Both the position numbers and the translations under genes were made by a program. From assembly GCA_002083775.1 (NCBI GenBank), contig MTEI01000006.1, positions 62,321-126,320 on the forward strand: a DNA stretch of 64,000 bases. The letters run 5' to 3'. The stretch is from Rhodoferax ferrireducens. Lineage in GTDB: Bacteria; Pseudomonadota; Gammaproteobacteria; Burkholderiales; Burkholderiaceae_C. Below, piece after piece: positions 2,434-43,998 of this stretch; the first letter of the stretch is position 1; the number at the start of each line of letters is the position of its first letter. A model generated the notes under the pieces. The model saw only the letters and a program-made list of their open reading frames with translations, was not told the DNA's origin and did not search any database.

Positions 2434-3714
2434 ATGAAAAAACATGCTCTAGCCCTTATATCTATTGCGTTAATAGCTCCCGTTTTCGCAGCAGATGTCT
2501 CTGAAGACGACGCACTGAACCTGGCCGACACCACGGCCGAGAGCACCAAAGTCGAGACCACCGACTGGCGCATCTTTACCGAGGCTGCCGCTGGCCGCAG
2601 CACCGTGCATGAGTGGCCGCTGCCGGATCGCCATGCCAACACCCAACGCCTGTCGCTGGACCTGCTGTTTGACAAAAAGCTCACCCCCGCGCTGCGCGCC
2701 GTGTTGTCGAACCGGCTGGACCTGAACCACCAACCCGACGCATTGGGCCAGCAAACCGTGAATACCCTGAAGGAAGCCTACCTGGGCTGGCAGCCGCAAA
2801 GCGACCGCGTGCTGGACATCGGGCGCATCAACGTGCGTTACGGCGCGGCCATGGGTTACAACCCGACCGACTTTTTCCGCGAGGGGGCCAACCGCGCCAT
2901 CACCTCGTTTGACCCCAACGCCATCCGCGAAAACCGCATGGGCACCGCCATGCTGCGCGGCCAGACCTTATGGGCCGGCGGCGCGCTGACCGCCATCTAC
3001 GCGCCCAAAGTGTCGGACGCGCCGAACAACGGCGACTGGAGCGCTGACTTTGGCTCCACCAACAACCGCAACCGCTGGCTGCTGGCCGCCAGCCACCAAC
3101 TGGCCGACAACGTCAACCCGCAGGTGGTGCTGTACGGCGATGAGCGCCAGCCGGTGCAGATGGGTCTGAACCTGGCCATGCTGGTCAATGACGCCACCGT
3201 GGCGCATGTGGAATGGTCGGGCGGGCGGCAAAAAAACCTGCTGGCGCAAGCCCTGCCGCTGGCACCTGGCGTGTCGCAAGACGAGGTGTTTCGCAACCGC
3301 GTGGCAGCTGGCATGACCTACACCAGCGCCAGCAAGCTGTCTCTCACAGCGGAATACCACTACAACGGGGCCGCAGTGGACGAGGCGGTGTGGAACGCGT
3401 TACGCACCAGTTCGGTGATGGATTACGCCAGCTATCGGTACCTGGTTGAAGAGCAACTTGACCTGACCACCCGCCACGCAGCGTTTTTGCGCGCCAGCTG
3501 GCAGGATGCGTTCATCAACAAACTGGATCTGACCGCCATGCTGCGCTACAACCTGGATGACGACAGCAAGTTGTCGTGGCTGGAAGCGCGTTACCGGTTT
3601 GACAAGTCTGAGATCGCCCTGCAGTGGCAACTGGCCAGCGGTAACGACAGCTCGGACTACGGTGCCATGGCCCAGCGCCGCAGCATTCAAGCTTTGTTCC
3701 GTTACTACTACTAG
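2434..3714 (+). CDS. Putative outer-membrane beta-barrel protein partnered with the LolA-like protein
   Basis: ORF trimmed to ATG 2434 (MKKHALALISIALIAPVFA signal peptide), 5 nt after the upstream stop. Alternating hydrophobic pattern and aromatic C-terminus ...ALFRYYY. Family not recognised. Confidence 0.5.
   Translation: MKKHALALISIALIAPVFAADVSEDDALNLADTTAESTKVETTDWRIFTEAAAGRSTVHEWPLPDRHANTQRLSLDLLFDKKLTPALRAVLSNRLDLNHQPDALGQQTVNTLKEAYLGWQPQSDRVLDIGRINVRYGAAMGYNPTDFFREGANRAITSFDPNAIRENRMGTAMLRGQTLWAGGALTAIYAPKVSDAPNNGDWSADFGSTNNRNRWLLAASHQLADNVNPQVVLYGDERQPVQMGLNLAMLVNDATVAHVEWSGGRQKNLLAQALPLAPGVSQDEVFRNRVAAGMTYTSASKLSLTAEYHYNGAAVDEAVWNALRTSSVMDYASYRYLVEEQLDLTTRHAAFLRASWQDAFINKLDLTAMLRYNLDDDSKLSWLEARYRFDKSEIALQWQLASGNDSSDYGAMAQRRSIQALFRYYY
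2446..2478. repeat. AT-rich palindromic repeat, copy A (inside CDS, encodes the signal peptide)
   Basis: gctctagcccttatatctattgcgttaatagct is alignable with the reverse complement of copy F (36571-36612). Confidence 0.75.
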
Positions 3715-3737
3715 ATGGCCAGTGCTATATCAAAAAG

Positions 3738-3770
3738 AGCTATCAGCCCTTATGGGACAAGGGCTAGAGC
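3738..3770. repeat. AT-rich palindromic repeat, copy B (covers the last codons and stop of the SLT gene)
   Basis: agctatcagcccttatgggacaagggctagagc has stem agccctt/aagggct. The stop codon of the minus-strand CDS (3750-3752) sits in the loop. Confidence 0.75.
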
Positions 3771-4688
3771 CTGTTTTGGCTTATAAGTAGACTGCGGCTT
3801 GAGGTTTTTCATGACCAGCGACGGCGAGCTGACTTTGCCCTCAAACGGATGGTGCGAGCCGCCAAAGGCGCGTAGCACCCGTTTGACATAGTTGCGTGTT
3901 TCCAGATACGGCGGCACACCTTTGTAGCGGTCCACGGTGCCCTCACCGGCGTTGTAGGCGGCCGCCACCAGCGCCACATCGCCCTCAAAATACGCCAGCA
4001 ACCAGCGCAGATAGGTCAGCCCGCCGCGAATGTTCTGCGCCGGATCAAAGGCGTTTTTGACGTTGAAACGCGCGCTGGTTTCCGGAATGAGCTGCATCAG
4101 GCCCTGGGCGTTTTTGGGCGACACGGCCTGCGGGTTGAAGTTGGACTCGGCGGCAATGATGGCCAGCGCCAGTTGCGGCGCCACCTGGAAACGCGGTGCC
4201 ATCTGGCCCACCAGCTTGAAGATGCTTTTGGGTGCGATCAGGCTGTAGTCCACCGGCGTCCAGGTCGCCATCTGAAGCTCCACGGGTAGCGGCTCGGGCT
4301 CGCGCATGCAGTCAGGCATGTCGGGCAGCACGTCGGCGAATTTGTCAGCCAGACGCCTGGCCGTCTCGATGCCCTGCTCAGCTGCGGCCTGAAACAGGTA
4401 GGCCGCCCGGCCGTCGTGGCGTGGCACACCGCGGCCGTTGGCGTACATCCAGCCCAGGTTGTACTGCGCGTCACGGTCGCCCTGCCGCGCTGCTTCGCAA
4501 TACAAATTGGCCGCCAGCAGCGGGTCGCGCCGCACGCCCTCGCCGTTTTCATAGGCCAGCGCTTGCGCAAACAGGCTGGCCTGCGCCGCGCCCCCCGGGG
4601 CGTTGTCCTGCGCCAAACACGCTGGCGCACACAGTGCACCCGCTAGCAGCGGCAAGCAGAAGGATCGAAGCAGGGACGTTGACAACAT
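3750..4688 (-). CDS. Lytic transglycosylase (SLT domain) with N-terminal Sel1-type repeats
   Basis: Signal peptide; Sel1-like segments YENGEGVRRDPLLAANLYCEAARQGDRDAQYNLGWMYANGRGV; SLT catalytic region AIIAAESNFNPQAVSPKNAQGLMQL...AAYNAGEG. Confidence 0.8.
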   Translation of the reverse strand: MLSTSLLRSFCLPLLAGALCAPACLAQDNAPGGAAQASLFAQALAYENGEGVRRDPLLAANLYCEAARQGDRDAQYNLGWMYANGRGVPRHDGRAAYLFQAAAEQGIETARRLADKFADVLPDMPDCMREPEPLPVELQMATWTPVDYSLIAPKSIFKLVGQMAPRFQVAPQLALAIIAAESNFNPQAVSPKNAQGLMQLIPETSARFNVKNAFDPAQNIRGGLTYLRWLLAYFEGDVALVAAAYNAGEGTVDRYKGVPPYLETRNYVKRVLRAFGGSHHPFEGKVSSPSLVMKNLKPQSTYKPKQALALVP

Positions 4689-4708
4689 GGCTGCATGCTA
4701 ACTTTTCT

Positions 4709-4788
4709 GATTGCGGATGTCATGCCGGACCTGATCCGGCATCCATGAATGCAGGGTCATGGATTGCGGATCAAGTCCGCAATGACAG
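4709..4788. repeat. GC-rich REP-like hairpin cluster (locus R2)
   Basis: gtcatgccggacctgatccggcatccatga plus tcatggattgcggatcaagtccgcaatgac; each unit is an inverted repeat. Confidence 0.7.
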
Positions 4789-4825
4789 CCACAGAGGTCC
4801 AAAATGGTTCTGCGCCCATGGAAAT

Positions 4826-5914
4826 TCAGCGCAACTTTTTGCCCAGCCAATGCTTGAGCCAGGCCATCAGGCCAGCGGGCGTACGCCAGTTAAAAGCGAC
4901 CAGGCCCCAGCGCTCGCGCCGGTGCGACATCCAGTCACGCTTGTAGGCGTCGTCACCTGTGAGGTAGTCCACCTCGTGCACCTGATCGATGTCCAACACG
5001 TGCTGCATCAACTTGGCTGTGAGCACCGAGCCCGCTGAAAAGCGTCCAAACCCTTCCACATAGGCCAGCTTGAAAATATTGGCTTTACCACCTTGAACCA
5101 GCCACAGCTGCGCGGCGATGGCCTGACCGTCAAGCTTGAGCACACCCAGGCGCAGCCAGCCCTGCACTGCGGCCATGCGCGCCAACGCCGGGATGAACTG
5201 ACGGTTGGGCTCAGGACCTTTCCAGCTTTTTTGGTAGACCGCGACAAAGTCGCCAATGGCGGCCTCCAGACTCGCGTCAGGCTGTTGCTGAATGTCCACT
5301 TGCCACGCACCCTGGCGCGTCAACCGGCGCTGGCCGCGTTCAATGCTGTGTCGCAACGCGGAAGGCAGGCCTTGAAAATAGTCAGCAAACGGTCGCCCTG
5401 CCACCTGCAGGTACCAGTTGCCAAAACAAAAGTAGCGGTCCACCGCGTAACCCGCCTGGCGCAAAGCCGCCTGAAAGCCGTCAAAAAATGTGGTTTGCGG
5501 ATCCATCGGGTCCAACATCAGCACCGGCCAGCGCTTGGGGTGCTGCCATAGAGCCTGGGCCAGCGCCTTCCAGTGTGCTGCACCCGGCTGCACAACAACG
5601 CCTTCACTCGCTGCCTGCCAGACCATGGGCATATACAGGCTGCTGTAGTAATTGCTCAGGCCGGTAAGCTTGGGGCCCGAGAGCAGCGGCAGGCACACCA
5701 CCGGGCCGCTGCGCCAGTCTCCCGCCTGCCACAGCTGGCAAACTGCTTCGCTCTGGCTCGCAGCATCCAGCCCAAACGCGGCCAAATTCTCAAACCAGGC
5801 CAAGGTGCCAAAGACATCAGTGGGTGCCATGCTGGGCGGCACGGTGCCCTGCTGGTCAAGCAGCGCCTGCAAACTGGCAAAGTTGTCCAGAATCTGGATG
5901 GCGGGTAGGCTCAC
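4826..5914 (-). CDS. GNAT-fold acyltransferase (Acetyltransf_6/CelD/FemAB-like), probably the PEP-CTERM-system-associated FemAB-related protein
   Basis: C-terminal half ...WLRLGVLKLDGQAIAAQLWLVQGGKANIFKLAYVEGFGRFSAGSVLTAKLMQHVLD...VDYLTGDDAYKRDW is typical of this family. Its position in an exosortase A locus supports the call. Confidence 0.6.
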   Translation of the reverse strand: MSLPAIQILDNFASLQALLDQQGTVPPSMAPTDVFGTLAWFENLAAFGLDAASQSEAVCQLWQAGDWRSGPVVCLPLLSGPKLTGLSNYYSSLYMPMVWQAASEGVVVQPGAAHWKALAQALWQHPKRWPVLMLDPMDPQTTFFDGFQAALRQAGYAVDRYFCFGNWYLQVAGRPFADYFQGLPSALRHSIERGQRRLTRQGAWQVDIQQQPDASLEAAIGDFVAVYQKSWKGPEPNRQFIPALARMAAVQGWLRLGVLKLDGQAIAAQLWLVQGGKANIFKLAYVEGFGRFSAGSVLTAKLMQHVLDIDQVHEVDYLTGDDAYKRDWMSHRRERWGLVAFNWRTPAGLMAWLKHWLGKKLR

Positions 5915-8060: not shown

Positions 8061-9689
8061 ATGTCGTCAGCCACCTTATTACCCGATCTCATCACCCTGG
8101 CGGCGCAGCGTTGCCCGGAGGCTGTGGCCTTGACCTGCGGCCCGGCGCACTGGAACTATGCCGCCTTGTCGGAATCGATGACCGCGTTCACCTCGGGCCT
8201 GCTGCAGCTGGGTCTGCAACGCGCCGACCGGGTGGGCATCTATGTGGAAAAGCGTTTGGAGGCGGTGGTGGCCAGTTTTGCTGCGCCACTGGCAGGGGCG
8301 GTGTTTGTGCCGATTAACCCCTTGCTCAAAGCGGCCCAGGTGGCGCACATCCTGCGCGACTGCCATGTGCGCGTGCTGGTGACATCGCCAGAGCGGTTGG
8401 CAACACTCGGCCCCATCTTGCGCGACTGCCCGGACCTGCAGCATGTGGTGCTGTGCGGGCGGACCGATCCGCCGCACACTAGGGGTCACTGGGTCGCCCA
8501 CACTTGGCAAGATGTGTCGAGCAGCCCCCCGGCAAATGGCCACCGGGTCATTGACGCCGACCTGGCCGCCATTTTGTACACCTCGGGCAGCACCGGCCAG
8601 CCCAAGGGCGTGATGCTGTCGCACCGTAATCTGGTGATGGGTGCCAAAAGTGTGGCCTCGTATCTGGAAAACCAGCCCGATGACACCCTGCTGGCGGCGC
8701 TACCTCTGTCGTTTGACGCGGGTTTCAGCCAGCTCACCACCGCTTTTCTTGTCGGTGCGCGGGTGGTGTTGCTCAATTACCTGTTGCCACGCGATGTGCT
8801 CAAGGCGCTGGCAGACGAAAAAGTCACCGGTCTGACCGCCGTTCCGCCGCTGTACCTGCAGCTGGCTGCACAGGACTGGCCCGAGGGCACCGGCGCGCAC
8901 TTGCGTTATTTCGCCAATACCGGCGGCCACTTGCCGCGTGACACGTTGGCCAAGTTGCGCCAGCGCCTGCCGCAAGCCAAGCCGTATTTGATGTACGGCC
9001 TGACCGAAGCCTTTCGCTCCACCTACCTGCCACCACAGGATGTGGACCGCAAACCCAACTCGATCGGCCAAGCCATTCCCAACGCCGAGGTGCTGGTGCT
9101 GCGCCCTGACGGCACGCCTTGCGCCACCGATGAGCCGGGCGAGCTGGTGCACCGCGGTGCGCTGGTGGCGCTGGGTTACTGGAACGATGCCGAGAAAACG
9201 GCCGAGCGCTTCAAACAGTTGCCCTTCTCCACGCCAGGCCGCCCAGCAGGCTTGCAATTGCCGGAAGTGGCGGTTTTTTCAGGCGACACGGTGCGCCGGG
9301 ATGCTGAGGGCTATCTGTATTTTGTCGGGCGGCGCGACGAGATGATCAAGACCTCGGGCTACCGGGTCAGCCCCACTGAAGTGGAAGACATCCTCTACGC
9401 CACGCAGCTCGTTGGTGAATGCGTCGCCTTTGGGGTGCCGCATGAGATGCTCGGACAAACTATACAAATCATAGCTACTCGCCCTTTATTCATAAGGGCT
9501 GAAGGCCAAAAAGACTTGATTTCTGAGTGCCGCAGCAGGATGCCCGCCTACATGCTGCCCGCCGGTATTGAGTGGGTGAACGGTCCGTTGCCACGTAACG
9601 CCAATGGCAAAATTGACCGTGCCACACTGGCGTGCGACTGGCTGGCGCACCATACTCATGCCACGCCAACCACAACCTCCGGGAGATGA
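8061..9689 (+). CDS. Acyl-CoA ligase (AMP-forming), exosortase A system-associated type
   Basis: ORF trimmed to ATG 8061 (MSSATLLPDLITLAAQRCPEAVAL). AMP-binding motifs ILYTSGSTGQPKGVMLSHRN, YGLTEA, GDTVRRDAEGYLYFVGRRDEMIKTSGYRVSPTEVE and NGKIDR. Confidence 0.85.
   Translation: MSSATLLPDLITLAAQRCPEAVALTCGPAHWNYAALSESMTAFTSGLLQLGLQRADRVGIYVEKRLEAVVASFAAPLAGAVFVPINPLLKAAQVAHILRDCHVRVLVTSPERLATLGPILRDCPDLQHVVLCGRTDPPHTRGHWVAHTWQDVSSSPPANGHRVIDADLAAILYTSGSTGQPKGVMLSHRNLVMGAKSVASYLENQPDDTLLAALPLSFDAGFSQLTTAFLVGARVVLLNYLLPRDVLKALADEKVTGLTAVPPLYLQLAAQDWPEGTGAHLRYFANTGGHLPRDTLAKLRQRLPQAKPYLMYGLTEAFRSTYLPPQDVDRKPNSIGQAIPNAEVLVLRPDGTPCATDEPGELVHRGALVALGYWNDAEKTAERFKQLPFSTPGRPAGLQLPEVAVFSGDTVRRDAEGYLYFVGRRDEMIKTSGYRVSPTEVEDILYATQLVGECVAFGVPHEMLGQTIQIIATRPLFIRAEGQKDLISECRSRMPAYMLPAGIEWVNGPLPRNANGKIDRATLACDWLAHHTHATPTTTSGR
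9471..9505. repeat. AT-rich palindromic repeat, copy C (in-frame inside the acyl-CoA ligase)
   Basis: atagctactcgccctttattcataagggctgaagg is translated as IIATRPLFIRAEG. Confidence 0.75.
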
Positions 9690-24553: not shown

Positions 24554-24655
24554 GTTCACGACCAAACGGCATTTTTTACAAACGCCTCAGGCGCGCTGAT
24601 GCCTGCGATCACCCTTCTCCGTCCCGCATCCCCCACAGCCGATAATCCCGCCCCT

Positions 24656-26632
24656 ATGGCACTCATCACCTTACTTGACGCCCAGCTGGCATTTGGGCAT
24701 GTCGCGTTGCTCGACCACGCTGATTTTTCTTTGGAGACGCAGGAACGCGTGGGGCTGATTGGCCGCAACGGCGCGGGCAAATCGTCCATGCTCAAAATCC
24801 TGGGCGGCATGGACAAACCCGATGACGGCACGACACAGGTGCAAAACAACACCCGCATCGCCTACGTAGCGCAAGAGCCGCAGCTTGACGCAGACGCTAC
24901 GATATTTGAAGCTGTCAGCGTCGGTCTGGCAAGGGTTAGAGCCCTGATTGACGAATATTCTGAAGGCCATGGCGACCTGGACGCGATGCAAAGCGAAATT
25001 GAGTCGCTGGACGGCTGGAACTGGGAGCAACGCGTGGGTGAAACGCTGCACCGCCTGCATCTGGCGCCCGACGCGATTGTCAGCACGCTCTCCGGCGGCA
25101 ACAAGAAGCGCGTGGCGCTGGCGCAGGCGCTGGTGTCTGCGCCCGACGTATTGCTGCTGGACGAACCCACCAATCACCTGGACCTGGACAGCATCGAATG
25201 GCTCGAAGGCCTGCTGTGCGAGTTCAAGGGCAGCATGATCTGCATCACCCACGACCGCTCCTTTCTGGACAACGTGGCCACGCGCATCGTCGAGCTGGAC
25301 CGGGGCAAATTGCTTTCGTATCCCGGCAATTTCGCCGCTTATCTGCTTCAAAAAGAAGAGCAACTGGCGCAAGAGGCGGTGATCAACGCGCGCGCCGACA
25401 AGCTGCTGGCCCAAGAAGAAATCTGGATTCGCAAAGGTGTGGAAGCGCGCCGCACCCGCGCCCAGGCGCGCATCGTGCGGCTGGGCGAACTGCGTGCCAA
25501 GCACCAGGCCCGGCGTGAGGCGGTGGGCAGCGTGAACATGGATGTGGTCACCGGCGGTGCCAGCGGCAAGCTGGTGGCTGAGCTGACGCACGTGTCGAAG
25601 AGCTTTGGCGAGCGCAAAATCGTTGACGACTTCTCCGCTACCATCCTGCGCGGCGACAAGATCGGCCTGCTCGGCCCCAACGGCGCGGGCAAAACCACGC
25701 TGCTCAAACTCATTCTGGGCGAACTCAAAGCCGACCCGGCACCGGCCAACTCCCCCGCGCCCGAACCTGGCCACAGCCCCTGGGGCACGGTGCGCCAGGG
25801 GGCCAACATTTCGGTGGCGTATTTCGACCAGATGCGCAACGCGCTGGACCTGGACGCCACGCTGGAAGACTTCATCAGCCCCGGCAGCGAGTGGATCGAA
25901 ATCGGCAACCAGAAAAAACACGTCAAAAGTTACCTGGGTGATTTCTTGTTCTCACCCGCACGGGCGAACTCCCCGGTGCGCAGTTTGAGCGGTGGCGAGC
26001 GCAACCGGCTGCTGCTGGCGCGCCTGTTTGCCCGCCCGGCCAACGTGCTGGTGCTCGATGAGCCCACCAATGACCTGGACATTGACACACTGGAATTGCT
26101 GGAAGACCTGCTGCAAAACTACGATGGCACGGTGTTTCTGGTCAGCCATGACCGCACCTTTCTCGACAACGTGGTCACCAGCACCATCGCGTTTGAAGGT
26201 GACGCCAAGTGGCGCGAGTACGAAGGCGGCGTGACCGACTGGTTGGTGCAAAGCAGGCGCGCTGCCGAGCTGGCCAAAGTTAAGGGTCAAAAAGGCCCCA
26301 AGCCCTTTCACTACGAGCGCGAGCAGCTATTAAAGAAAGAGCAAACTACGACTGTTGAGCCCGTCGCCGCCGTGCCGCCAGCGCCCACCGCAGCAACCGC
26401 CAAAACGCGCAAGCTCAGTTTCAAGGAGCAGCGTGAACTGGATGCGCTGCCCGCCTTGATTGCCGCGCTGGAAGCCGAGCAGCAAGAGGCCAACACCCAG
26501 CTCGCCGACGGCAGCCTCTACGCCGTGGACAACGCCCGCGCGTTGAAACTGGCCACCCGCAGCGCACAGATTGACGATGAACTGCTGGCCGCGCTGGAGC
26601 GCTGGGAAACGCTGGGCAGCAGCGCTGGCTGA
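24656..26632 (+). CDS. uup: ABC-F family ATPase (Uup-like), two ABC domains plus a C-terminal coiled coil
   Basis: Trimmed to ATG 24656. Two Walker A motifs (GRNGAGKSS, GPNGAGKTT), two signature motifs (LSGGNKKR, LSGGERNR) and a linker with QEEIWIRKGVEARRTR. Confidence 0.85.
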   Translation: MALITLLDAQLAFGHVALLDHADFSLETQERVGLIGRNGAGKSSMLKILGGMDKPDDGTTQVQNNTRIAYVAQEPQLDADATIFEAVSVGLARVRALIDEYSEGHGDLDAMQSEIESLDGWNWEQRVGETLHRLHLAPDAIVSTLSGGNKKRVALAQALVSAPDVLLLDEPTNHLDLDSIEWLEGLLCEFKGSMICITHDRSFLDNVATRIVELDRGKLLSYPGNFAAYLLQKEEQLAQEAVINARADKLLAQEEIWIRKGVEARRTRAQARIVRLGELRAKHQARREAVGSVNMDVVTGGASGKLVAELTHVSKSFGERKIVDDFSATILRGDKIGLLGPNGAGKTTLLKLILGELKADPAPANSPAPEPGHSPWGTVRQGANISVAYFDQMRNALDLDATLEDFISPGSEWIEIGNQKKHVKSYLGDFLFSPARANSPVRSLSGGERNRLLLARLFARPANVLVLDEPTNDLDIDTLELLEDLLQNYDGTVFLVSHDRTFLDNVVTSTIAFEGDAKWREYEGGVTDWLVQSRRAAELAKVKGQKGPKPFHYEREQLLKKEQTTTVEPVAAVPPAPTAATAKTRKLSFKEQRELDALPALIAALEAEQQEANTQLADGSLYAVDNARALKLATRSAQIDDELLAALERWETLGSSAG

Positions 26633-29580: not shown

Positions 29581-30459
29581 CTAGGGGTAAACCCTTTCCT
29601 CAACGACCTGAGCCAGCACCGGGTCGTCGGCTTCGGGCTGAACTGGCTGCTGAACGGGCAGGGTTTTGTCCATCCAGGCCAACAAATCACGCCACATGCG
29701 GGCCATCTCCGCGCTGCTGGGCGTGACCAGGGCATGGGGCAGCTCCACGGTCACCACCGGAATACCGCGCTGCACGCCGCTGAAATTACCCAACGAACCT
29801 GGAAACACCCCCACCTGGTCCAGGTACAGCCGACCGAGTTGGGTGGGCGGCATCACCGGGCCGTCAAAGTCCAGCACGCCATAGGGCGCATGAATGCTGA
29901 CGATCAGCTGCGGCTGAAAGCGCGCCATCTCGTCATACAAATAGCGCGACTCGGGCTCACTCAGCGGCTTGGGGCCGGGCCAGCGCCGCGGGTCTTTGCC
30001 GGTGCGCTGCTCCCAGTACACCTTGGTTTCGCGTTGCCAGTTTGGGGTGGGAAAGTTGCGGTTTAAATCAACACCGTGCGCGTTCATCCGTTGTGGCTTA
30101 CGGCGCATCAGGCCGTCGGGGTTGAGCACCGGGATGAAGCGCCAATGCGTTTGCAGCGGGGCGGCCTGCGCCATCTGCAACCAATGCAGCGCCACCGAGG
30201 CCGCCGACAACTCGTCGCCATGCATGGTGGCCACCACCAGCACGCGCCGCTGCGCCCCCGCCAAAGCCAGGTCGCGCAGCAGAATGGGGCGCCCCTGCAC
30301 ACTGCGCGCGGCGCTGGGTTTGAGATCGGCCGCGCGGCAAAGCGCCCGTGGCACATTCGGAATTTTTGTATAAAAATCGCTGCAAGCCCATATAGAATAA
30401 GGGCTAGTAGCTATACAAAATAAAGCAAACAGAGCGGAGCGTTTGAACCAGTCATGCAT
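29581..30459 (-). CDS. M14-family zinc carboxypeptidase (MpaA/murein-peptide amidase-like)
   Basis: Trimmed to ATG 30459. VVATMHGDELSAASVALHW...IPVLNPDGL...NAHGVDLNRNFP is the Zn-carboxypeptidase signature. The N-terminal signal peptide is encoded by repeat copy D. Confidence 0.75.
   Translation of the reverse strand: MHDWFKRSALFALFCIATSPYSIWACSDFYTKIPNVPRALCRAADLKPSAARSVQGRPILLRDLALAGAQRRVLVVATMHGDELSAASVALHWLQMAQAAPLQTHWRFIPVLNPDGLMRRKPQRMNAHGVDLNRNFPTPNWQRETKVYWEQRTGKDPRRWPGPKPLSEPESRYLYDEMARFQPQLIVSIHAPYGVLDFDGPVMPPTQLGRLYLDQVGVFPGSLGNFSGVQRGIPVVTVELPHALVTPSSAEMARMWRDLLAWMDKTLPVQQPVQPEADDPVLAQVVEERVYP
30383..30415. repeat. AT-rich palindromic repeat, copy D (encodes part of the M14 peptidase signal peptide)
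   Basis: caagcccatatagaataagggctagtagctata reads on the minus strand as CIATSPYSIWAC. Confidence 0.75.
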
Positions 30460-30554: not shown

Positions 30555-31073
30555 ATGTTTTCAATCTCCACCCGTTCCCAGGCGCAAGCGCCCGACTTCT
30601 CCAGCACCCAATTCCGTACTGCCCTGGGCATGTTTGCCACCGGCGTGACCATCGTCACCGCGCGCACGCCTGCGGGCGAGCTGGTGGGGCTAACGGCCAA
30701 TTCGTTCAATTCGGTGTCGCTCACGCCGCCGCTGGTGCTGTGGAGCCTGTCGCAGGCGGCCAGCGCCATGGACGCGTTCCGTCAGGGCTCGCATTACGCC
30801 ATCAACATCCTGGCGGCCGACCAACAGGCGCTGGCGCTGCGTTTTGCCGCACGCGGGGTGGACCGCTTTGCCGACCTGGATTTTTCTGAGGGGCGCAGCG
30901 GCGCGCCGCTGATTGCTGGCAGCGTGGCCACCTTTGAGTGCTTCAACCGCAGCCGTTATGAAGAAGGCGACCACGTGATTTTTGTCGGCGAGGTGGAATA
31001 CTGCAGCCACCGCGCCGGTGCTTCGCCGCTGCTTTACCACGGCGGCAAGTTTTACACCGAGCATCCCCTTTGA
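30555..31073 (+). CDS. Flavin reductase family protein (NAD(P)H-flavin oxidoreductase, HpaC-like)
   Basis: FRTALGMFATGVTIVTARTPAGELVGLTANSFNSVSLTPPLVLWSL is the Flavin_Reduct domain signature. Confidence 0.8.
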   Translation: MFSISTRSQAQAPDFSSTQFRTALGMFATGVTIVTARTPAGELVGLTANSFNSVSLTPPLVLWSLSQAASAMDAFRQGSHYAINILAADQQALALRFAARGVDRFADLDFSEGRSGAPLIAGSVATFECFNRSRYEEGDHVIFVGEVEYCSHRAGASPLLYHGGKFYTEHPL

Positions 31074-31103
31074 CGTGATAGACATTGCCAGCCATCCGTT
31101 CGG

Positions 31104-31152
31104 CTGTCATGCTTTTGGTTGTCATCCCGGACCTGTTCCGGGATCCATGAAC
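31104..31152. repeat. GC-rich REP-like hairpin (locus R4)
   Basis: gctgtcatgcttttggttgtcatcccggacctgttccgggatccatga. Confidence 0.7.
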
Positions 31153-31194
31153 GGGTGTGATTCAAAGTGATGTATGGCTTGGGGAGCTAGTCCG

Positions 31195-31390
31195 AGGCAT
31201 TGGCTTACGCTGTGGCTTGCGGCTGTGGTTTTCGGTTGGGATAAATGGCGCGGCGACCGGGTCAGGCGCATGCGGTTTTGGGGCGCAATCACGCGCGGGG
31301 TTGGGGTGGTGGTACGCGCAGGGCCGTTGACGCGCGCCTTGTGCCCCAAAGCCCGGTCGCCTAACCCAATCACCGCGCCCGAGACGTTGT
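31195..31390. repeat. ~190-bp element, left copy (internally palindromic)
   Basis: ggcgaccgggtcaggcgcatgcggttttggggcgcaatcacgcgcgggg...cgcgcgccttgtgccccaaagcccggtcgcctaacccaatcacc matches the reverse complement of 31610-31810 over most of its length. Confidence 0.65.
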
Positions 31391-31549
31391 TGGCAAAGCA
31401 GGCGGGGGGGGAAGGCGAAGGCAACGACAAAAGTAAATGCAAAGGCGAAGGTCTGGCGATGTTTATCACACAGTAAACGCCCAGACTTGAGGGGCGAGTT
31501 GGTTGACTGATGTATCAAGCGCCTTGAGTACACCTTTAGACTCAAATTT

Positions 31550-31585
31550 ATAGCTGCTAGCCCGTACTGCTAAAGGGCTAGAGGC
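31550..31585. repeat. AT-rich palindromic repeat, copy E (intergenic)
   Basis: atagctgctagcccgtactgctaaagggctagaggc. Confidence 0.75.
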
Positions 31586-31609
31586 ACTTTTTTCTTAAAA
31601 CAACCTCAC

Positions 31610-31810
31610 GATGACTCACATGCCTCGGGCAGGGTGATTGGGTCAGGTGACCGGGCTTTGGGTGGCAAGGCGCGCGTCTGAGGTACTGGCTTACTGAGAC
31701 ATCAGCCCCGCGCGTGATTGCTACCCAAAACCGCACGCACCTGACCCGGTCGCCCTGCCATGTGCAAAAGCCAGCCACAACACGCGAAAGCCAGCCACCA
31801 AAAAAAAGAG
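31610..31810. repeat. ~190-bp element, right copy (inverted relative to 31195-31390)
   Basis: The reverse complement reads ...ggcagggcgaccgggtcaggtgcgtgcggttttgggtagcaatcacgcgcgggg...cgcgcgccttgccacccaaagcccggtcacctgacccaatcacc. Confidence 0.65.
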
Positions 31811-31886
31811 GGATCGCTGTCAAAACACACAACTTTGAATCACATCCTCCAGGAACCCAGAGCCATGGATGCCGGGTCGTGGCCCG

Positions 31887-31958
31887 GCATGACATCCTGC
31901 ATGACAACCTGCATGACATCCTGCGTGACATCCGGCATGGCAGCCGATATGACAACCC
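31887..31958. repeat. Tandem dodecamer repeat, 6 units (GCATGACATCCT-like), adjoining REP-like locus R5 (31862-31886)
   Basis: Units in order: gcatgacatcct, gcatgacaacct, gcatgacatcct, gcgtgacatccg, gcatggcagccg, atatgacaaccc. Confidence 0.75.
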
Positions 31959-32075
31959 TTTCTTTCACGTCAAAACAGCGCCGCATTTGACGTTTGATCT
32001 GACTTGAAAACATCTGTCAGAAAGCTTGTCGCGAGCGTAAACTAATGGTTCACAACTTCACAACACGAGCCATTT

Positions 32076-34130
32076 ATGAGCGTCAAACCATCTGAAAAAA
32101 TCCGTGCTGTGGCCTTGGTGGGCCATGGGTCTGTCGGTAAAACCACGCTGGTGGAGAGCCTGCTGGCCGCCACCGGCACCATTGCCAGCCGTGGCACGGT
32201 GGAAAAGGGCAACACCGTCTGCGACTTTGACCCGATTGAAAAACAACTTGGCCACTCGCTGCAATCCTCGTTGGTCAGCCTGACCAGCGCCGACACGCGC
32301 ATCCACCTGCTTGACACGCCTGGCTACCCTGACTTTGCGGGCCAGGCCATTGGCGCGCTGGCCGCCGCCGACACCGCCCTGATTGTGATCAGCGCGCAAA
32401 CCGGCATCGAACTCACCACCGAGCGCATGTTCACCCTGGCCGGTGAGCGCGGCCTGTGCCGCATGATTCTCATCAACAAGATCGACGCTGACAACCTGGA
32501 CCTGGGCGCGCTGGTGGACGACATCCGGGAGCGCTTTGGCAAGCAGTGCCTGCTGCTGGACCTGCCCACCAAACACGCGCAAGAGGTGGTGGAACTGCTC
32601 GGCCATGACGACGGCGAGAGCGACTTTGCCAGCGTGGCTGCCGCGCACCGCGCGCTGATCGACCAACTGATTGAAGAAGACGACGACCTGATGGCGCGGT
32701 ATCTGGAAGACGGCTTGGAGCCCAGCCCGCAGGAGTTGCACGCACCATTTGAAAAAGCGCTGCGCGCCGGACACCTGATCCCGATCCTGTTTGTCTCCGC
32801 CAAAACCGGTGCCGGCGTGCCCCAGCTGCTGGACGCGCTGGTCAAGCTGGCACCCAACCCGGCAGAAGGCAACCCGCAGCCGTTTTACAAGGGTGAGCCC
32901 GGTGCCGAGCCCGTCGGCTTTGCCGCGCAGCCGGACGACGCGCTGCATGTGCTGGCGCATGTGTTCAAGGTGGTGGTGGACCCGTTCATTGGCAAGGTGT
33001 GCGTGTTTCGCGTGCACCAGGGCACGGTGCGCAAAGATGCGCAGCTGTTTGCCGGTTCAGGCAAGCGCCCGTTCAAGGTCAACCACCTGTACCAGCTGCA
33101 AGGCAAAGACTATGTCGAGGTCGAAGCCTTGGTGCCCGGCGACATTGGCGCGGTGGCCAAGGTGGATGACATCGCATTTGACAGCGTGCTGCATGACTCG
33201 CATGACGAAGACCACATCCACTTGAAACCGCTGGCCTTCCCGCAACCCATGCAGGGCCTGGCAGTGCAAACCCAGCGCAAGGGCGACGAGCAGCGGCTGT
33301 TTGAAATTCTGCACAAGCTCGAACTCGAAGACCCGTGCTTCACTGTGGAGCGCCACCCCGGCACCAACGAAACCGTGATCCGTGGCCTGGGCGACATGCA
33401 CCTGCGCGCCAAGATGCTGCGCATGCAGCAACAGTTCAAGCTGGAACTCACCACCAGCGAGCCGCAGATCGCCTACCGCGAAACCATTCTGGGCAACGCC
33501 GAGGGCCACTGCCGCCACAAGAAACAAAGCGGCGGCGCCGGTCAGTTTGGCGAGGTATTTCTGCGTGTCGAGCCACTGGCGCGTGGTGCAGGGTTTGAGT
33601 TTGAAGACGTGGTCAAAGGTGGTGCCATTCCTGGCGTGTTCATGCAGGCGGTCGAAAAAGGCGTGCAGCAGGCGCTGGCCGAGGGCGCCGTGGCGGGTTT
33701 CCCCCTGCACGATTTGCGCGTGACCGTGTACGACGGCAAAACCCACGCGGTGGACGGCAAAGAGGTCGCGTTTGTGGCCGCCGCCCGCAAAGCCACGCTG
33801 GAAGCCGTGCGCGCGGCCAAACCCATTGTGTTGGAGCCGGTGGTGACCATTGAGGTGGTGGCACCCGAGTCTGCCATTGGTGACCTGACCGGTGACCTGG
33901 CCAGCAAACGCGGCCACATCACCGGCACCCAGCCGCGCCCGATGGGCACCGTGGCCATCAGCGGCCAGATGCCGCTGGCCGAGCTGGGCGACTACCAGAG
34001 CCGCCTGAAGTCTCTCACCGGCGGCCAGGGCTCGTACAGCCTGACTTTTTCGCACTACGCCCAGGTGGGTGACGATACCCAGGCCAAACTCGCCAGCGCC
34101 TTCAAGCCCGGCAACCTGGCGGATGATTGA
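32076..34130 (+). CDS. Elongation factor G paralogue (EF-G2-like translational GTPase)
   Basis: G1 motif GHGSVGKTT, DTPGYPDF and NKID, plus EF-G domains II-V (e.g. GDMHLRAKMLRMQ, HKKQSGGAGQFG). 684 aa. Confidence 0.85.
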   Translation: MSVKPSEKIRAVALVGHGSVGKTTLVESLLAATGTIASRGTVEKGNTVCDFDPIEKQLGHSLQSSLVSLTSADTRIHLLDTPGYPDFAGQAIGALAAADTALIVISAQTGIELTTERMFTLAGERGLCRMILINKIDADNLDLGALVDDIRERFGKQCLLLDLPTKHAQEVVELLGHDDGESDFASVAAAHRALIDQLIEEDDDLMARYLEDGLEPSPQELHAPFEKALRAGHLIPILFVSAKTGAGVPQLLDALVKLAPNPAEGNPQPFYKGEPGAEPVGFAAQPDDALHVLAHVFKVVVDPFIGKVCVFRVHQGTVRKDAQLFAGSGKRPFKVNHLYQLQGKDYVEVEALVPGDIGAVAKVDDIAFDSVLHDSHDEDHIHLKPLAFPQPMQGLAVQTQRKGDEQRLFEILHKLELEDPCFTVERHPGTNETVIRGLGDMHLRAKMLRMQQQFKLELTTSEPQIAYRETILGNAEGHCRHKKQSGGAGQFGEVFLRVEPLARGAGFEFEDVVKGGAIPGVFMQAVEKGVQQALAEGAVAGFPLHDLRVTVYDGKTHAVDGKEVAFVAAARKATLEAVRAAKPIVLEPVVTIEVVAPESAIGDLTGDLASKRGHITGTQPRPMGTVAISGQMPLAELGDYQSRLKSLTGGQGSYSLTFSHYAQVGDDTQAKLASAFKPGNLADD

Positions 34131-34910: not shown

Positions 34911-37574
<2,664 letters not shown>

Positions 37575-39725: not shown

Positions 39726-40912
39726 GCGATCAGGCAGCGCGCCTGCGGGTGCTTGGCGCGGGCATTTTCAGCCTGGTGCTGGTGCTGGGTGTGGCGCGTT
39801 TCTCTTACACACCGCTGCTGCCGCTGATGCAGCAGCAAGCCGGGCTGGGCGTGGCGGCTGCAGGCTGGCTGGCAGCCATCAACTACGCGGGTTACCTGAG
39901 CGGCGCGCTGATTGCCTCGCAAATCAGCGACCTGGTGCTCAAAGACAAGCTGTACCGCATCGGCATGGTGCTGGCGGTGCTGAGTACGCTGCTGATGGGG
40001 CTGACCACCAACGTCATCGTCTGGGCCGTGTCGCGTTATGTGGCCGGGCTGTGCAGCGCGGCGGGCATGCTGCTGGGCACCGGGCTGATTCTGAACTGGC
40101 TGATACGCCACAACCACCGCAGTGAGCTGGGCATCCATTTCTCAGGCATCGGGCTGGGCATTGCCGGCTGCTCGGCCACGGTGATGCTGCTGCACCCGGC
40201 GCTGGACTGGCGCGAACAATGGTGGGCCTTTACCGCACTGGGCTGCCTGCTGCTGGTGCCCGCCCTGGCCTGGTTGCCGCGCCCGGATACCACCGGCCTG
40301 ACGACCAGTGGCCAGAAGATGGTGGACAACCCGCCCAGCAGCTTGTACCTGCGGGTGTTCATGGCGGCGTATTTCTGCGCCGGGTTTGGGTATGTGGTGA
40401 GCGCCACGTTCATTGTGGCCATCGTCAACCAGCTGCCGGGGTTGGCGGGTCAGGGCAACCTGGCGTTTTTGGCGATTGGCCTGGGTGCTGCCCCGGCCTG
40501 CATCAACTGGGACTTTATCGCCCGGCGCACCGGCGACCTGAACGCGCTGATCTTGGCGGCAGTACTGCAAATTGTCGGCATCCTGCTGCCGGTGCTGGTG
40601 GGCGGGCTGATTCCGACGCTGTTTGGCGCGTTGCTGTTTGGCGGCACCTTCATCGGCATGGTCAGCCTGGTGCTGAGCATGGCCGGGCGCTACTACCCCA
40701 CCAAACCCGCCAAGATGATGGGCAAGATGACCTTGAGTTACGGTGTGGCGCAGATCATCGGCCCGGCCATCACCGGGCAACTGGCGGTGCAGCTGGGCAG
40801 CTACAACGCCGGGCTGTACTTTGCCGCCGGGGTGATGGCGGTGGGTACCGCACTGCTGCTGGTGCTGAAGTGGGTGGAGCGGCGGGATGCGCGGGCCAAG
40901 CTGACGTTGTAG
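39722..40912 (+). CDS. YbfB/YjiJ-family MFS-type membrane protein
   Basis: LGVARFSYTPLLPLMQQQAGLGVAAAGWLAAINYAGYLSGAL is characteristic of the family; 12 predicted TM segments. The start is uncertain: TTG 39722 overlapping the upstream stop, or GTG 39749. Confidence 0.65.
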   Translation: MSDQAARLRVLGAGIFSLVLVLGVARFSYTPLLPLMQQQAGLGVAAAGWLAAINYAGYLSGALIASQISDLVLKDKLYRIGMVLAVLSTLLMGLTTNVIVWAVSRYVAGLCSAAGMLLGTGLILNWLIRHNHRSELGIHFSGIGLGIAGCSATVMLLHPALDWREQWWAFTALGCLLLVPALAWLPRPDTTGLTTSGQKMVDNPPSSLYLRVFMAAYFCAGFGYVVSATFIVAIVNQLPGLAGQGNLAFLAIGLGAAPACINWDFIARRTGDLNALILAAVLQIVGILLPVLVGGLIPTLFGALLFGGTFIGMVSLVLSMAGRYYPTKPAKMMGKMTLSYGVAQIIGPAITGQLAVQLGSYNAGLYFAAGVMAVGTALLLVLKWVERRDARAKLTL

Positions 40913-40925
40913 TGACGCTGTCGGG

Positions 40926-42194
40926 CTACACCACGCCACGCGCGCGCAACGCGGCGATGTCGGCGGGTTTCAGCCCCAACTCACCCAGCACTTCATCCGT
41001 ATGTTCGCCTAGGCTGGGTGGCGCACGGCGCAGCACCGGCGGCGTGGCGCTCAAGCGCAGGGGGCTGGCGACGGTGTTGACAGTGGTTTGAATTGATATT
41101 TTCTCAGTAGCTACTTGCCCTTTATCTATAAGCGCTAGAGGCTGTTTTATCACTAAACCACGGGCTTGAACCTGGGCGTCGGCAAAGGCTTGTGCCATGT
41201 CGTTGATCGGGCCGCAGGGCACGGCTTTGTCCTCCAGCAGCGTGGTCCAGTCAGCCGTGCTGCGGGTGCGTGTCACCGGCAGCATCAGCGCGATGAGCGC
41301 CTCTCGGTTTTGCACGCGCAGGGTGTTGCTGGCAAAACGTGCGTCTGCCGCCCACTCGGGGTGGCCTGCGGCTTCGCAAAAGCGGGCGAACTGGCCGTCG
41401 TTGCCGATGGCCAGCAGCATCGAGCCGTCCAAGGTGGCAAAGGTCTGGTACGGCGCAAGGCTGGGGTGGGTGTTGCCTTGGCGCTGCGGCACTTTGCCGG
41501 TGTTCAGAAAACCCGCCGCCTGATTGGCCAGCACCGCCATGCCCACGTCGAGCAGCGCCATGTCGATGTGCTGGCCTTCGCCCGTGGTGTGGCGCGCCTC
41601 GACAGCCGCCAGGATGGCGCTGGTGGCGTAGATGCCGGTGAGAATGTCCACCAGCGCCACACCCATGCGCATGGGGCCGCCACCGGGTTGGTCGTCGGCG
41701 TGGCCGGTGATGCTCATCAGGCCGCTCATGGCCTGGATCATCAGGTCGTAACCGGCGCGCTCGGCATACGGGCCGGTCTGACCGAAACCGGTGACCGAGC
41801 AGTAGATCAGGCGCGGATTGATTTCCTTCAGGCTCTGGTAGTCCAGCCCGTATTGCTTCAGGCCACCGACCTTGAAGTTTTCCACCAGGATATCGCTGCT
41901 GGCGGCCATCTGGCGGATCAGCGCCTGGCCTTCGGGTTGGGCCATGTCCAGCGTGATGGCGCGTTTGTTGCGGTTGCAGGCGGTGAAGTAAGTCGCCTCG
42001 GTGGTGTCGTTGCCCTCAGCGTCTTTCAAAAACGGCGGGCCCCAGTGGCGCGTGTCGTCCCCGGCGCCCGGGCGCTCGACCTTGATCACGTCGGCACCCA
42101 GGTCGGCCAGCATCTGCGTGCACCACGGGCCAGCCAACACGCGGGAGAGGTCGAGAACTTTGAGGTGGGAGAGGGCGGCGGGTTGGGGGATCAT
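40926..42194 (-). CDS. CaiB/BaiF family III CoA-transferase (probable glutarate/succinyl-CoA transferase partner of GcdH)
   Basis: LKVLDLSRVLAGPWCTQMLADLGADVIKVERPGAGDDTRHWGPPF N-terminal signature; C-terminal ...LGEHTDEVL; downstream of gcdH. Confidence 0.85.
   Translation of the reverse strand: MIPQPAALSHLKVLDLSRVLAGPWCTQMLADLGADVIKVERPGAGDDTRHWGPPFLKDAEGNDTTEATYFTACNRNKRAITLDMAQPEGQALIRQMAASSDILVENFKVGGLKQYGLDYQSLKEINPRLIYCSVTGFGQTGPYAERAGYDLMIQAMSGLMSITGHADDQPGGGPMRMGVALVDILTGIYATSAILAAVEARHTTGEGQHIDMALLDVGMAVLANQAAGFLNTGKVPQRQGNTHPSLAPYQTFATLDGSMLLAIGNDGQFARFCEAAGHPEWAADARFASNTLRVQNREALIALMLPVTRTRSTADWTTLLEDKAVPCGPINDMAQAFADAQVQARGLVIKQPLALIDKGQVATEKISIQTTVNTVASPLRLSATPPVLRRAPPSLGEHTDEVLGELGLKPADIAALRARGVV
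41108..41142. repeat. AT-rich palindromic repeat, copy G (in-frame inside the CoA-transferase)
   Basis: gtagctacttgccctttatctataagcgctagaggc reads on the minus strand as QPLALIDKGQVAT. Confidence 0.75.
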
Positions 42195-42422
42195 GATCTT
42201 GTGTCGCTGTCTTTGCTGTGGTGAGTGGAAACCAGCTGGTTTGCGTTGTCAGGCTTGCTTTTGCGGCTGGTTACACGGGGTTATGTTCTTGGACGGACTG
42301 GCGATTTTGGTGGGTCGTCGAAGCAAAAGACCAAAACCCGAGATGCAACAGCGGAGCTCTCATAGAAGTTTGCCACCTGGATTGGTCTTCAAGGCCTTTG
42401 CACACCAATGAAGCGTGCTGCA

Positions 42423-42495
42423 GCGGGTGGGGTATGGGGCCCCGCCGATTTCTGGGCCTTTGACAGTATGAGGCGGGGCTCCATACCCCACCCGC
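42423..42495. repeat. Long near-perfect inverted repeat (24-nt arms, 1 mismatch, 25-nt loop) between gcdH and the CoA-transferase gene
   Basis: The arms are gcgggtggggtatggggccccgcc (42423-42446) and ggcggggctccataccccacccgc (42472-42495). Confidence 0.75.
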
Positions 42496-42531
42496 TGCCA
42501 CCACAGACGTTGGCAACCCGACAACCTGGGT

Positions 42532-42563
42532 TCATGGATTGCCGATCGGAGTCCGCAATGACA
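42532..42563. repeat. GC-rich REP-like hairpin (locus R7)
   Basis: tcatggattgccgatcggagtccgcaatgaca. Confidence 0.65.
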
Positions 42564-42610
42564 GACTCAACGTCGTGTGTCATCGAGGCAGCCAACCCAG
42601 ACTCAACAAA

Positions 42611-43804
42611 TCAGCAAAAGGCCTGAATCCCGGTCTGCGCGCGCCCCAGAATCAGCGCATGGATATCGTGCGTACCCTCATAGGTGTTCACCACCTCCAG
42701 GTTCACCAGATGCCGCGCCACACCAAACTCGTCACTGATGCCGTTGCCACCCATCATGTCGCGCGCCATGCGGGCCACATCCAGCGCCTTGCCACATGAA
42801 TTGCGCTTCAAAATCGATGTGATTTCCACTGCCGCCGTGCCTTCATCCTTCATGCGGCCCAGGCGCAGGCAGCCTTGCAGGCCGAGCGCGATGTCGGTCT
42901 GCATGTCGGCCAGCTTCTTTTGAATCAACTGGTTAGCTGCCAGCGGGCGACCAAACTGCTGGCGGTCCATCACGTACTGGCGCGAACGCAGCCAGCAGTC
43001 TTCTGCCGCACCTAGAGCACCCCAGGCAATGCCGTAGCGCGCGCTGTTCAGACAGGTAAACGGGCCTTTGAGGCCTTGCACTTCCGGAAAAGCGTTTTCT
43101 TCCGGGCAAAACACACCGTCCATGACGATCTCGCCGGTGATGCTGGCGCGCAGGCCCACCTTGCCGTGGATCGCCGGGGCGCTCAGGCCCGCTGCGCCTT
43201 TGTCCAGCACAAAACCGCGAATCGGGCCGACGGTGCCGGACTCGGACACTTCTTTCGCCCAGACCACAAACACGTCGGCGATCGGCGAGTTGGAAATCCA
43301 CATCTTGTTGCCGCTGAGCTTGTAACCGCCCGGCACCTTGTGGGCGCGGCTGAGCATGCTGGCCGGGTCACTCCCGTGGTTGGGTTCGGTCAGGCCGAAG
43401 CAGCCAATCCACTCACCGGTAGCGAGTTTGGGCAGGTATTTCTGGCGCGTGGCCTCATTGCCAAACTCGTAAATCGGCAGCATCACCAGCGAACTTTGCA
43501 CACTCATCATGCTGCGGTAGCCACTGTCCACACGCTCCACCTCGCGGGCGATCAGGCCGTAGGCGACGTAGTTCAGGCCGGGGCCGCCGTAGGTCTCGGG
43601 GATGGTTGGCCCCAGCAAACCGAGCTCACCCATCTCACGGAAGATGGCCGGGTCGGTCTGCTCGTTGCGAAACGCCTGGATCACACGCGGCTGCAGTTTG
43701 TCCTGGCAATAGGCGGCGGCGGCCTCCTTGACCATGCGTTCGTCATCGCTGAGCTGTTGCTCCAGCAAAAAGGGGTCTTGCCAGTTGAAGGATGCGTGGG
43801 CCAT
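42611..43804 (-). CDS. gcdH: Glutaryl-CoA dehydrogenase
   Basis: N-terminus [20 protein letters not shown]...; acyl-CoA dehydrogenase motifs [14 protein letters not shown] and ...[14 protein letters not shown]; 397 aa. Confidence 0.85.
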
Positions 43805-43966
43805 GGGTATCTCCAGAAATCGGTGATCAGAAGTTGATCACCACATGCTAACGCGGCTCAGGCGGACGGTAAAACGATTTGTTGTCACTCAGATATGCGT
43901 TTTCAGCATGATTAGCTATTCAAGATAGTCGCAAGATCATTTTGACTCTTGTAGTCAGAGTGGCAA

Positions 43967-43998
43967 CTAGCCGTTATCTAAAAAGGGCTGACAGCTAT
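43967..43998. repeat. AT-rich palindromic repeat, copy H (intergenic, in the gcdH/LysR divergent promoter region)
   Basis: ctagccgttatctaaaaagggctgacagctat. Confidence 0.6.

Follow-up and report, generated by a model that had tools for sequence, protein, structure and literature searches.

How does an AT-rich palindrome come to be translated within the GC-rich genes of a free-living betaproteobacterium? The question is raised by a 64-kb stretch of Rhodoferax ferrireducens DNA (contig MTEI01000006.1, positions 62,321 to 126,320; below, the window), which derives from a metagenome-assembled genome (MAG) and has a G+C content of 61%. One protein encoded in it is also found on contig JAEMOF010000006.1 of assembly GCA_017973875.1, a MAG whose proteins carry the label Rhodoferax ferrireducens. 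An earlier note had described in it eight copies of a palindromic repeat of 35-50 bp, each an A/T-rich patch and most of them inside genes, and had likened them to the in-frame Rickettsia palindromic elements (RPEs). We analysed these copies, numbered here c1 to c8 from left to right, together with their counterparts in related genomes. On balance we favour the view that they belong to a terminator-type hairpin family of the Comamonadaceae which resembles the repetitive extragenic palindromes (REPs), and that the coding copies are old by-products of this family and not fresh in-frame insertions.

The repeat unit and its place between genes

All eight copies are present, and shuffle controls exclude chance as their source. 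With up to three mismatches the left-arm pattern ATAGCTRCTAGCCCTTAT matches the window six times, compared with 0.00 matches expected from shuffled sequence, and the right-arm pattern ATAAGGGCTAGAGGC eight times, compared with 0.83 expected and a maximum of four in 100 shuffles. A covariance model built from 59 copies and scanned over the window with filters off recovers all eight and only one more, the marginal c9 (26281-26336, minus strand; 24 bits, E=3e-4). The A/T-rich patches stand out clearly, the 56-nt model matches having a G+C content of 0.34-0.45 against 0.61 for the window. Half-site searches of the window, again with up to three mismatches, return paired copies only and no isolated half-sites, and neither strand polarity nor regular spacing of the copies is seen within it. 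Further copies occur in 406 kb of DNA from relatives.

Once oriented, the copies align nearly gap-free. The core of 37-39 bp reads ATAGCT-N-CTAGCCCTTAT, a variable 3-nt loop and ATAAGGGCTAG-N'-(GGCC or AGCTAT), i.e. two 18-nt inverted arms per core, with both the arm length and the 3-nt loop fixed. Based on position-wise information and A+T content the unit is larger than first proposed and spans ~68 bp, from ~15 nt before ATAGCT to ~53 nt past its start, and comprises the core, AT-rich wings and a T-run directly after the right arm. The pairing register of the arms was set by hand and then tested with slide controls: 76% of cells pair in the specified register, compared with 27-51% after a shift of the partner by 1-3 columns. 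Compensatory change is restricted to the N/N' position (T-A 14, G-C 12), the arms being conserved in sequence, and RNAalifold on the 59-copy alignment returns a trivial 3-bp helix only.

Single-sequence folding bears out the palindrome for intact copies, which are predicted to form a strong hairpin (-17 to -30 kcal/mol) followed by the T-run. The energies are -29.9 kcal/mol (z=-6.5) for a copy in a Comamonas MAG (L052), -18.4 kcal/mol for both a copy in another relative (L004) and c2, -17.2 kcal/mol for c5 and -17.0 kcal/mol (z=-3.1) for c4. Most coding copies fold no better than shuffled sequence, and c1 and the intergenic c8 show no hairpin beyond it. Promoter-like matches in a simple scan are at chance level only.

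To map the range of the family we searched one genome per species (185,579 species) for exact matches to ATAGCTNCTAGCCCTTAT. The complete palindrome is present in 51 of the 55 matches, and all 51 come from Comamonadaceae or from records labelled only Burkholderiales or Gammaproteobacteria; the genera represented are Rhodoferax, Comamonas, Polaromonas, Simplicispira, Giesbergeria and Oryzisolibacter. The remaining four (Enterococcus, Clostridium, Saprospiraceae and an unclassified 'bacterium') lack the second arm and were taken as chance. As judged from these sequences, the family appears to be specific to the Comamonadaceae. The 406 kb of relatives' DNA hold ~75 copies, ~24 of which were not selected by the exact pattern, and the window holds 8-9; the density is about one per 7-17 kb. 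Copies occur as single units only, with neighbours 0.5-5 kb apart. No Rfam family matches the window at gathering score, and none matches the intact copies of L004 and L052 at E<=1. Consistent with the earlier note, which knew of no described equivalent, we found no description of an AT-rich hairpin family of the Comamonadaceae in the searchable literature, either by text or by core sequence; the sole sequence match there is a Comamonas aquatica cloning primer that by chance overlaps a copy.

The position of the repeat relative to genes was classified with a gene map based on the G+C content of third codon positions (GC3), which could be done for 67 copies. Only 10 of these lie in open reading frames (ORFs) while 57 are extragenic, so that the statement 'mostly inside genes' holds for the window and fails for the family. 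Among the classifiable copies, 25 are co-oriented and 12 anti-oriented with tandem genes, 17 lie between convergent genes and three between divergent ones. The co-orientation bias of 25:12 (p=0.047) is accompanied by median distances of 27 nt for facing gene 3' ends and 85 nt for facing 5' ends (Mann-Whitney p=0.015), and among ~60 high-scoring copies in relatives none lies deep inside a gene. This distribution after stop codons points to REP-like, terminator-like behaviour rather than to an element that invades genes.

Two matches were also obtained in a plasmid collection. One copy, 82% identical to the consensus, lies on a plasmid of Diaphorobacter sp. HDW4A (NZ_CP049911.1:107816-107865) under the annotated cobN gene; the second is on a Rhodoferax antarcticus plasmid (NZ_CP019241.1:14642-14681), under no listed gene. 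Separately, the Comamonas MAG that carries the most stable hairpin contains a group II intron (L052:5301-7317; Rfam RF02012 106 bits, RF00029 64 bits) ~4 kb from a repeat copy.

Copies that overlap reading frames

Two frames of the consensus are free of stops, one in sense (I-A-x-S-P-Y-x-I-R-A-R-G-Q-F) and one in antisense. In the sense direction the arm is read as I-A-x-S-P-Y...W-A; in the antisense direction the T-run becomes Lys-Lys and the arm L-A-L-I-S-I. The earlier note had correctly recorded the L-A-L reading, which applies to c1, c2, c6 and c7, as well as the stop codons in some frames, and the element's own stops indeed restrict frame use. An intact element read in the L-A-L frame meets its own TAA 15 nt on; c1, c6 and c7 therefore carry an altered second arm, and c2 ends there. 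Six copies had been placed in open reading frames. Five of them (c1, c3, c4, c6 and c7) are fully contained in long, GC3-rich ORFs that encode recognisable domains, and leave the frame open, whereas c2 provides the last seven codons and the stop of its gene; c5 and c8 are intergenic. The annotated genes of public assemblies span the coding copies.

Copy c2 (3730-3785, plus strand, 57 bits; earlier placed at 3738) lies between the convergent ORF 2434-3714(+) and an SLT transglycosylase gene at 3750-4688(-), and its right arm encodes the last seven codons of the transglycosylase (...QALALVP) and the TAA stop. The protein exceeds its orthologues in Rhodoferax sp. BLA1 and R. antarcticus by 17 amino acids, and in BLA1 the same element lies ~30 nt past the SLT stop. 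The extension is due to loss of the ancestral stop, as a result of which the gene now reads into c2. Among the tested coding copies only c2 adds residues, and it does so by read-through.

At the other end of a protein, c1 (2431-2486, core 2446-2478, minus strand, 43 bits) is antisense in ORF 2434-3714(+), which codes for an exported protein. The codons with which the signal peptide of this protein, MKKHALALISIALIA, begins come from the T-run and right arm of c1, whose left arm is degenerate. In the orthologues L065 and L077 this signal peptide is equally long (±1), and in distant ones it comprises 17-22 amino acids. In the sense direction, c4 (30365-30420, core from 30383, minus strand, 54 bits) supplies both the hydrophobic core and the end that contains Cys in the N-terminal signal peptide, MHDWFKRSALFALFCIATSPYSIWAC, of an M14 peptidase gene at 29581-30459(-). 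The same arrangement is present in two further species. Besides, copies in the relatives L039 and L050 are put to the use that c4 has in the window, the repeat in its open sense frame reading as an apparent signal peptide, VKRFFITIIFIATSPYYTWA at L039:3064-3149 and MRHRILKSIALFLIAASPYINLAIA at L050:3441-3530.

The internal copies were compared with orthologues and with solved structures. Copy c3 (9465-9520, core from 9471, plus strand, 47 bits) is read in sense as IATRPLFIRAEGQ in the C-terminal domain of an exosortase-A-associated acyl-CoA ligase (ORF to 9689). There is no length difference at this site in 120 orthologues of 69-100% identity, the I-A-T encoded by the first nine bases of the element corresponds to a conserved strand of the protein family, and the segment is at most three amino acids longer than in solved adenylate-forming (ANL) enzymes. 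Copy c6 (36565-36620, core from 36571, plus strand, 53 bits), antisense in a hybrid sensor kinase gene at 34911-37529(-), encodes the start of a transmembrane helix whose length is the same in orthologues and in homologues down to ~40% identity. The DNA of c6 aligns base for base with a GC-rich, 79%-identical orthologue (L064), and the T-run of the element coincides with the codons of a conserved WQKW motif. An origin of c6 by gene fusion was rejected, as distant homologues outside the family share both the domain order and the helix.

Copy c7 (41101-41156, core from 41108, plus strand, 54 bits) is antisense in a CaiB/BaiF CoA-transferase gene at 40926-42194(-) and encodes the loop QPLALIDKGQVAT. 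Its 13 element-coded residues align 1:1 with a Polaromonas loop that is equally long, GC-rich and unrelated; 27 of the 39 bases differ, compared with a fraction of 0.39 at four-fold sites of the same gene pair. Compared with 9br6, a distant solved homologue, the loop has 13 extra amino acids (39 nt), and an ancient insertion may have occurred at c7 alone. Since c1, c3 and c6 are no longer than element-free homologues and c7 has the length of the Polaromonas loop, the likeness to Rickettsia insertions does not hold up, and alignment with orthologues marks c1, c3 and c6 as length-neutral. Judged from these alignments, the coding copies do not appear to be Rickettsia-style in-frame insertions. 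The length-neutral internal copies may have arisen by conversion-type replacement, by in-place evolution under selection at the DNA level, or by insertion with an exactly compensating deletion.

The ninth match, c9, falls in the linker of an ABC-F ATPase gene at 24599-26632(+). It aligns 1:1 with the Polaromonas orthologue, its middle is set by PFHYERE, a conserved motif, and its flanks alone match the element better in the window than in Polaromonas. The close relative L079 scores 18.7 bits inside its own ABC-F gene, and c9 may be a partial or a chance match. Next to this gene, the segment 21400-24600 has a low G+C content (0.42-0.55), a weak GC3 signal and no repeat copies; it may be acquired DNA.

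Of the two intergenic copies, c5 (31544-31599, plus strand, 59 bits) is a hairpin followed by a run of six T, located in ~1 kb of non-coding DNA between a flavin reductase gene (30555-31073) and the gene for elongation factor G (32076-34130). This interval (31074-32075) holds no convincing gene; L079 lacks ~700 nt of it, Rhodoferax sp. U11-2br (L059) has an HD-domain gene there, and the interval may be the remnant of a decayed gene. Copy c8 (43949-44004, minus strand, 45 bits) is degenerate and lies between the divergent genes for an acyl-CoA dehydrogenase (42611-43804, minus strand) and a LysR regulator (44038-44970, plus strand). The gap of 416 bp between the acyl-CoA dehydrogenase and the CoA-transferase genes (42195-42610) measures 37 bp in Polaromonas (L060), and in L079 a PhdYeFM antitoxin/PIN toxin pair occupies this place (L079:1856-2549). 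The rest of the window, from 44 kb onwards, holds no repeat copies. This part includes an ORF of 2619 amino acids (52172-60031, minus strand) with a GC3 signal below that of its neighbours, for which DUF7933, SdrD_B and SpaA-like repeat domains are given in the public annotation.

Age of the copies and competing explanations

Scanning orthologous sites with the covariance model places c3, c4, c6, c7 and c8 at the same sites in other Rhodoferax species. The c7 site scores 58 bits in L079, 49.8 in Rhodoferax sp. U11-2br and 17.5 in R. lithotrophicus, and gives no match in Polaromonas. For c3 the scores are 45.8 bits in BLA1, 31.7 in R. antarcticus and 20.5 in R. ferrireducens T118, whose ligase (~70% protein identity) retains the two ends of the element, rare codons ATA and AGA included, on either side of a GC-rich middle. 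The c4 site reaches 40 bits in L079 and 47 bits in L059, and the c6 site 45.5 bits in L079. At the c8 site L079 scores 22.7 bits, L059 and L058 carry degenerate copies, and Polaromonas lacks ~85 nt. Because the coding copies sit at the same sites in other species and have mostly lost the hairpin, they are old and vertically inherited. No recent gain inside a gene was observed among the copies compared across species.

Between species 6 of the 39 positions of c7 differ, compared with 0.30-0.35 at four-fold sites. Across orthologous sites of closely related Rhodoferax, the loop is changed at 6 of 15 positions and the unselected right arm at 7 of 80; either the arms are constrained or the loop is hypermutable.

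A gain or loss is visible at one intergenic site, where BLA1 has ~105 nt comprising the element and its flanks that U2-2l lacks, bounded by CCAAG(AG) repeats. This segment is larger than the ~68-bp unit, and the difference agrees with a larger piece having been gained or lost by recombination rather than with clean transposition. Furthermore, a GC-rich repeat of ~95 nt (CAACAAGCGCCCAACC...CACGCGAACCCAAGAG) is found directly upstream of the element at two sites 2.4 kb apart, the second of which is the site that differs between BLA1 and U2-2l; its copies lie at L056:3640-3740, L056:1240-1340, L017:343-440 and L017:2740-2830, and it is possibly the beta-proteobacterial repeat element (BRE) described by Hot et al. 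2011.

In the reading that we favour, the transcribed hairpin and its U-run would act as an intrinsic terminator or as a stabiliser of transcript 3' ends. The family would have multiplied by copying, for which a REP-type tyrosine transposase or recombinational copying are candidates. Terminal copies would have acquired a coding role through the shift of a start or stop codon into an adjacent extragenic copy, and the stop loss by which the transglycosylase gene reads into c2 suggests that terminal coding cases arise in this way from a neighbouring copy; c1, and c4 in the signal peptide of three species, would be comparable cases of recruitment. Internal copies would occupy tolerant segments such as a membrane helix or loops, at unchanged length and in stop-free frames. 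Across Rhodoferax, copies persist at the same sites while slowly decaying.

Several observations weigh against this interpretation. One third of the copies between same-direction genes oppose transcription, a simple promoter/terminator scan called none of the copies as terminators, there are mismatches in the stems, AT-rich arms are atypical for terminators, and a few copies have an A-run in place of the T-run. Conservation of the arms by sequence and not by compensatory change fits common descent or recognition by a protein better than a purely structural RNA, and a role in termination or stabilisation would be deduced from position and structure only. Neither a RAYT-type gene nor any other transposase was seen near the clustered copies of L013 and L022, where genes for Fic, glyoxalase, toxin-antitoxin and M23 peptidase proteins are found. 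In addition, no known mechanism of REP transposition accounts for the internal copies that are length-neutral.

Conservation of the arm sequence across genera, and not just of pairing, raises the alternative that the palindrome is a recognition site at the DNA level, bound or cleaved by a conserved Comamonadaceae protein (a nucleoid-associated protein, a gyrase-type enzyme or a regulator) and kept, or evolving in place, wherever it is tolerated, coding sequence included. The fixed arm length and loop, the slower change of the arms, the persistence of the rare-codon ends in the T118 ligase gene and the few differences at c7 relative to four-fold sites are consistent with this, and length-neutral coding copies are what in-place evolution would produce. 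However, a candidate protein is not known, many old copies decay (c8, c7 in R. lithotrophicus and c6 in L064), the post-stop bias and the attached T-run point to a role at the RNA level, and the copies in the window show neither strand polarity nor regular spacing. We regard this explanation as rather doubtful. Equal length of internal coding copies and orthologous non-element sequence would also follow if copies overwrote resident sequence of the same length, by ectopic gene conversion or template switching. At c7 the divergence from Polaromonas exceeds that at four-fold sites, which suggests replacement over divergence; the T-run of c6 falls on pre-existing conserved WQKW codons, the flanks of c9 are closer to the element than those of the Polaromonas orthologue, and gene conversion has long been proposed for the evolution of REPs (Higgins et al. 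1988, as cited in PMC3733652). On the other side, all coding copies are ancient and no such event is seen in progress, the direction of change could be gain or decay, the loop and helix alignments could hide an insertion with a compensating deletion, and the flanking homology normally needed is absent here. Conversion of this kind thus seems unlikely to us.

The comparison with RPEs amounts to a palindrome that transposes into genes and adds a peptide segment by in-frame insertion. Five copies are indeed translated in frame within functional genes, the restriction to certain frames is as expected if only non-disruptive insertions survive, the CaiB loop exceeds that of 9br6 by 13 amino acids, and the CCAAG-bounded difference of ~105 nt shows the element present in one and absent from another of two close species. 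Against this stand the lack of any indel at c3 in 120 orthologues and its excess of at most three residues over solved ANL enzymes, the c6 helix and c1 signal peptide that are no longer than in their homologues and orthologues, and the 1:1 alignment of c7 with the Polaromonas loop. Moreover, TAA is present in the L-A-L frame of an intact element, whose insertion in this frame would truncate the protein, and the family is mainly extragenic. An RPE-like origin is in our view improbable. Finally, the MAG source and the weakness of c9 and c1 on one arm could suggest chance, base composition or an assembly artefact. Given the 0.00 and 0.83 matches expected from shuffles, the recurrence of the elements at identical sites in independent assemblies and in isolates, and the 51 full palindromes in other Comamonadaceae genomes, this can practically be dismissed for the eight listed copies. 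The favoured interpretation remains a REP-like, terminator-type family with old coding copies.

Relation to known repeats and wider meaning

REPs are mainly extragenic, lie near or overlap the 3' ends of genes, occur between convergent or same-direction genes and sometimes supply a stop codon, with occasional intragenic copies (PMC3733652). The Comamonadaceae repeat falls under this general definition and resembles REPs and bacterial interspersed mosaic elements (BIMEs) as a short imperfect palindrome with many dispersed, mostly extragenic copies at 3' ends. It differs from them in being AT-rich in a GC-rich genome and in its T-run and wings that extend the unit to ~68 bp. In contrast to BIMEs and REPINs it occurs as single units and not as inverted dimers at fixed spacing, and unlike the REP superfamilies of Di Nocera et al. 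2013 it has no terminal GTAG/CGTC tag: its ends are ATAGCT... and ...GGCC/AGCTAT, and GTAG is confined to the N=A variant, where it lies within the stem. RPEs, as summarised in PMC3733652 from Ogata et al. 2000 and 2002, are insertions that add residues and are translated in frame. Our repeat shares with them the presence of a palindrome in frame in functional genes, at segments tolerant of change; it differs in that internal copies add no residues, in its free-living betaproteobacterial host and in its mainly extragenic distribution.

In Neisseria and the Pasteurellaceae, inverted pairs of DNA uptake sequences (DUS) and uptake signal sequences (USS) form terminators after genes, and these sequences occur about once per kb. 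The likeness to the Comamonadaceae repeat includes the terminator-stem position after genes and in-gene copies that are length-neutral, frame-biased and stable at orthologous sites, whereas our repeat has no isolated half-sites and a density of one per 7-17 kb. Identity with an uptake sequence was rejected on the grounds that no isolated half-sites occur in the window. RU-1/2/3 and the enterobacterial repetitive intergenic consensus (ERIC; Delihas 2007, PMC2759123) as well as the Coxiella MITEs (miniature transposable elements with inverted repeats; PMC5896051) are described as MITE-like insertions of 100-170 bp with terminal inverted repeats; they share with our family that intergenic repeats sometimes supply coding sequence. 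The BRE is ~90 bp long, 69% GC and often in tandem, occurs in Rhodoferax, Polaromonas, Delftia and Bordetella, and has some copies in coding sequence (Hot et al. 2011, PMC3110155). Its size and high G+C content led us to reject it as the identity of the AT-rich repeat.

Small palindromic repeats are common in bacteria, but their mode of multiplication and their function are known for only a few families. The present family is useful in this respect, as it is easily recognised, occurs across environmental bacteria of the Comamonadaceae, can be traced at orthologous sites and has length-neutral coding copies. In practical terms, AT-rich patches of rare codons in GC-rich genes can mislead gene callers on starts and stops, and the repeat is a handy marker for Comamonadaceae DNA. 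We further advance, as a tentative and speculative proposal, that the family might be maintained, and perhaps spread, by length-neutral overwriting of resident DNA (conversion or template switching) and not by insertion, which would let it enter coding sequence with protein length unchanged, and that its two open frames might have been recruited repeatedly as ready-made export signals. If length neutrality reflects the way in which copies originate, this would be a mode of repeat spread distinct from transposition. If the proposal is true, a REP-like element would time and again have supplied signal peptides and segments of membrane helices.

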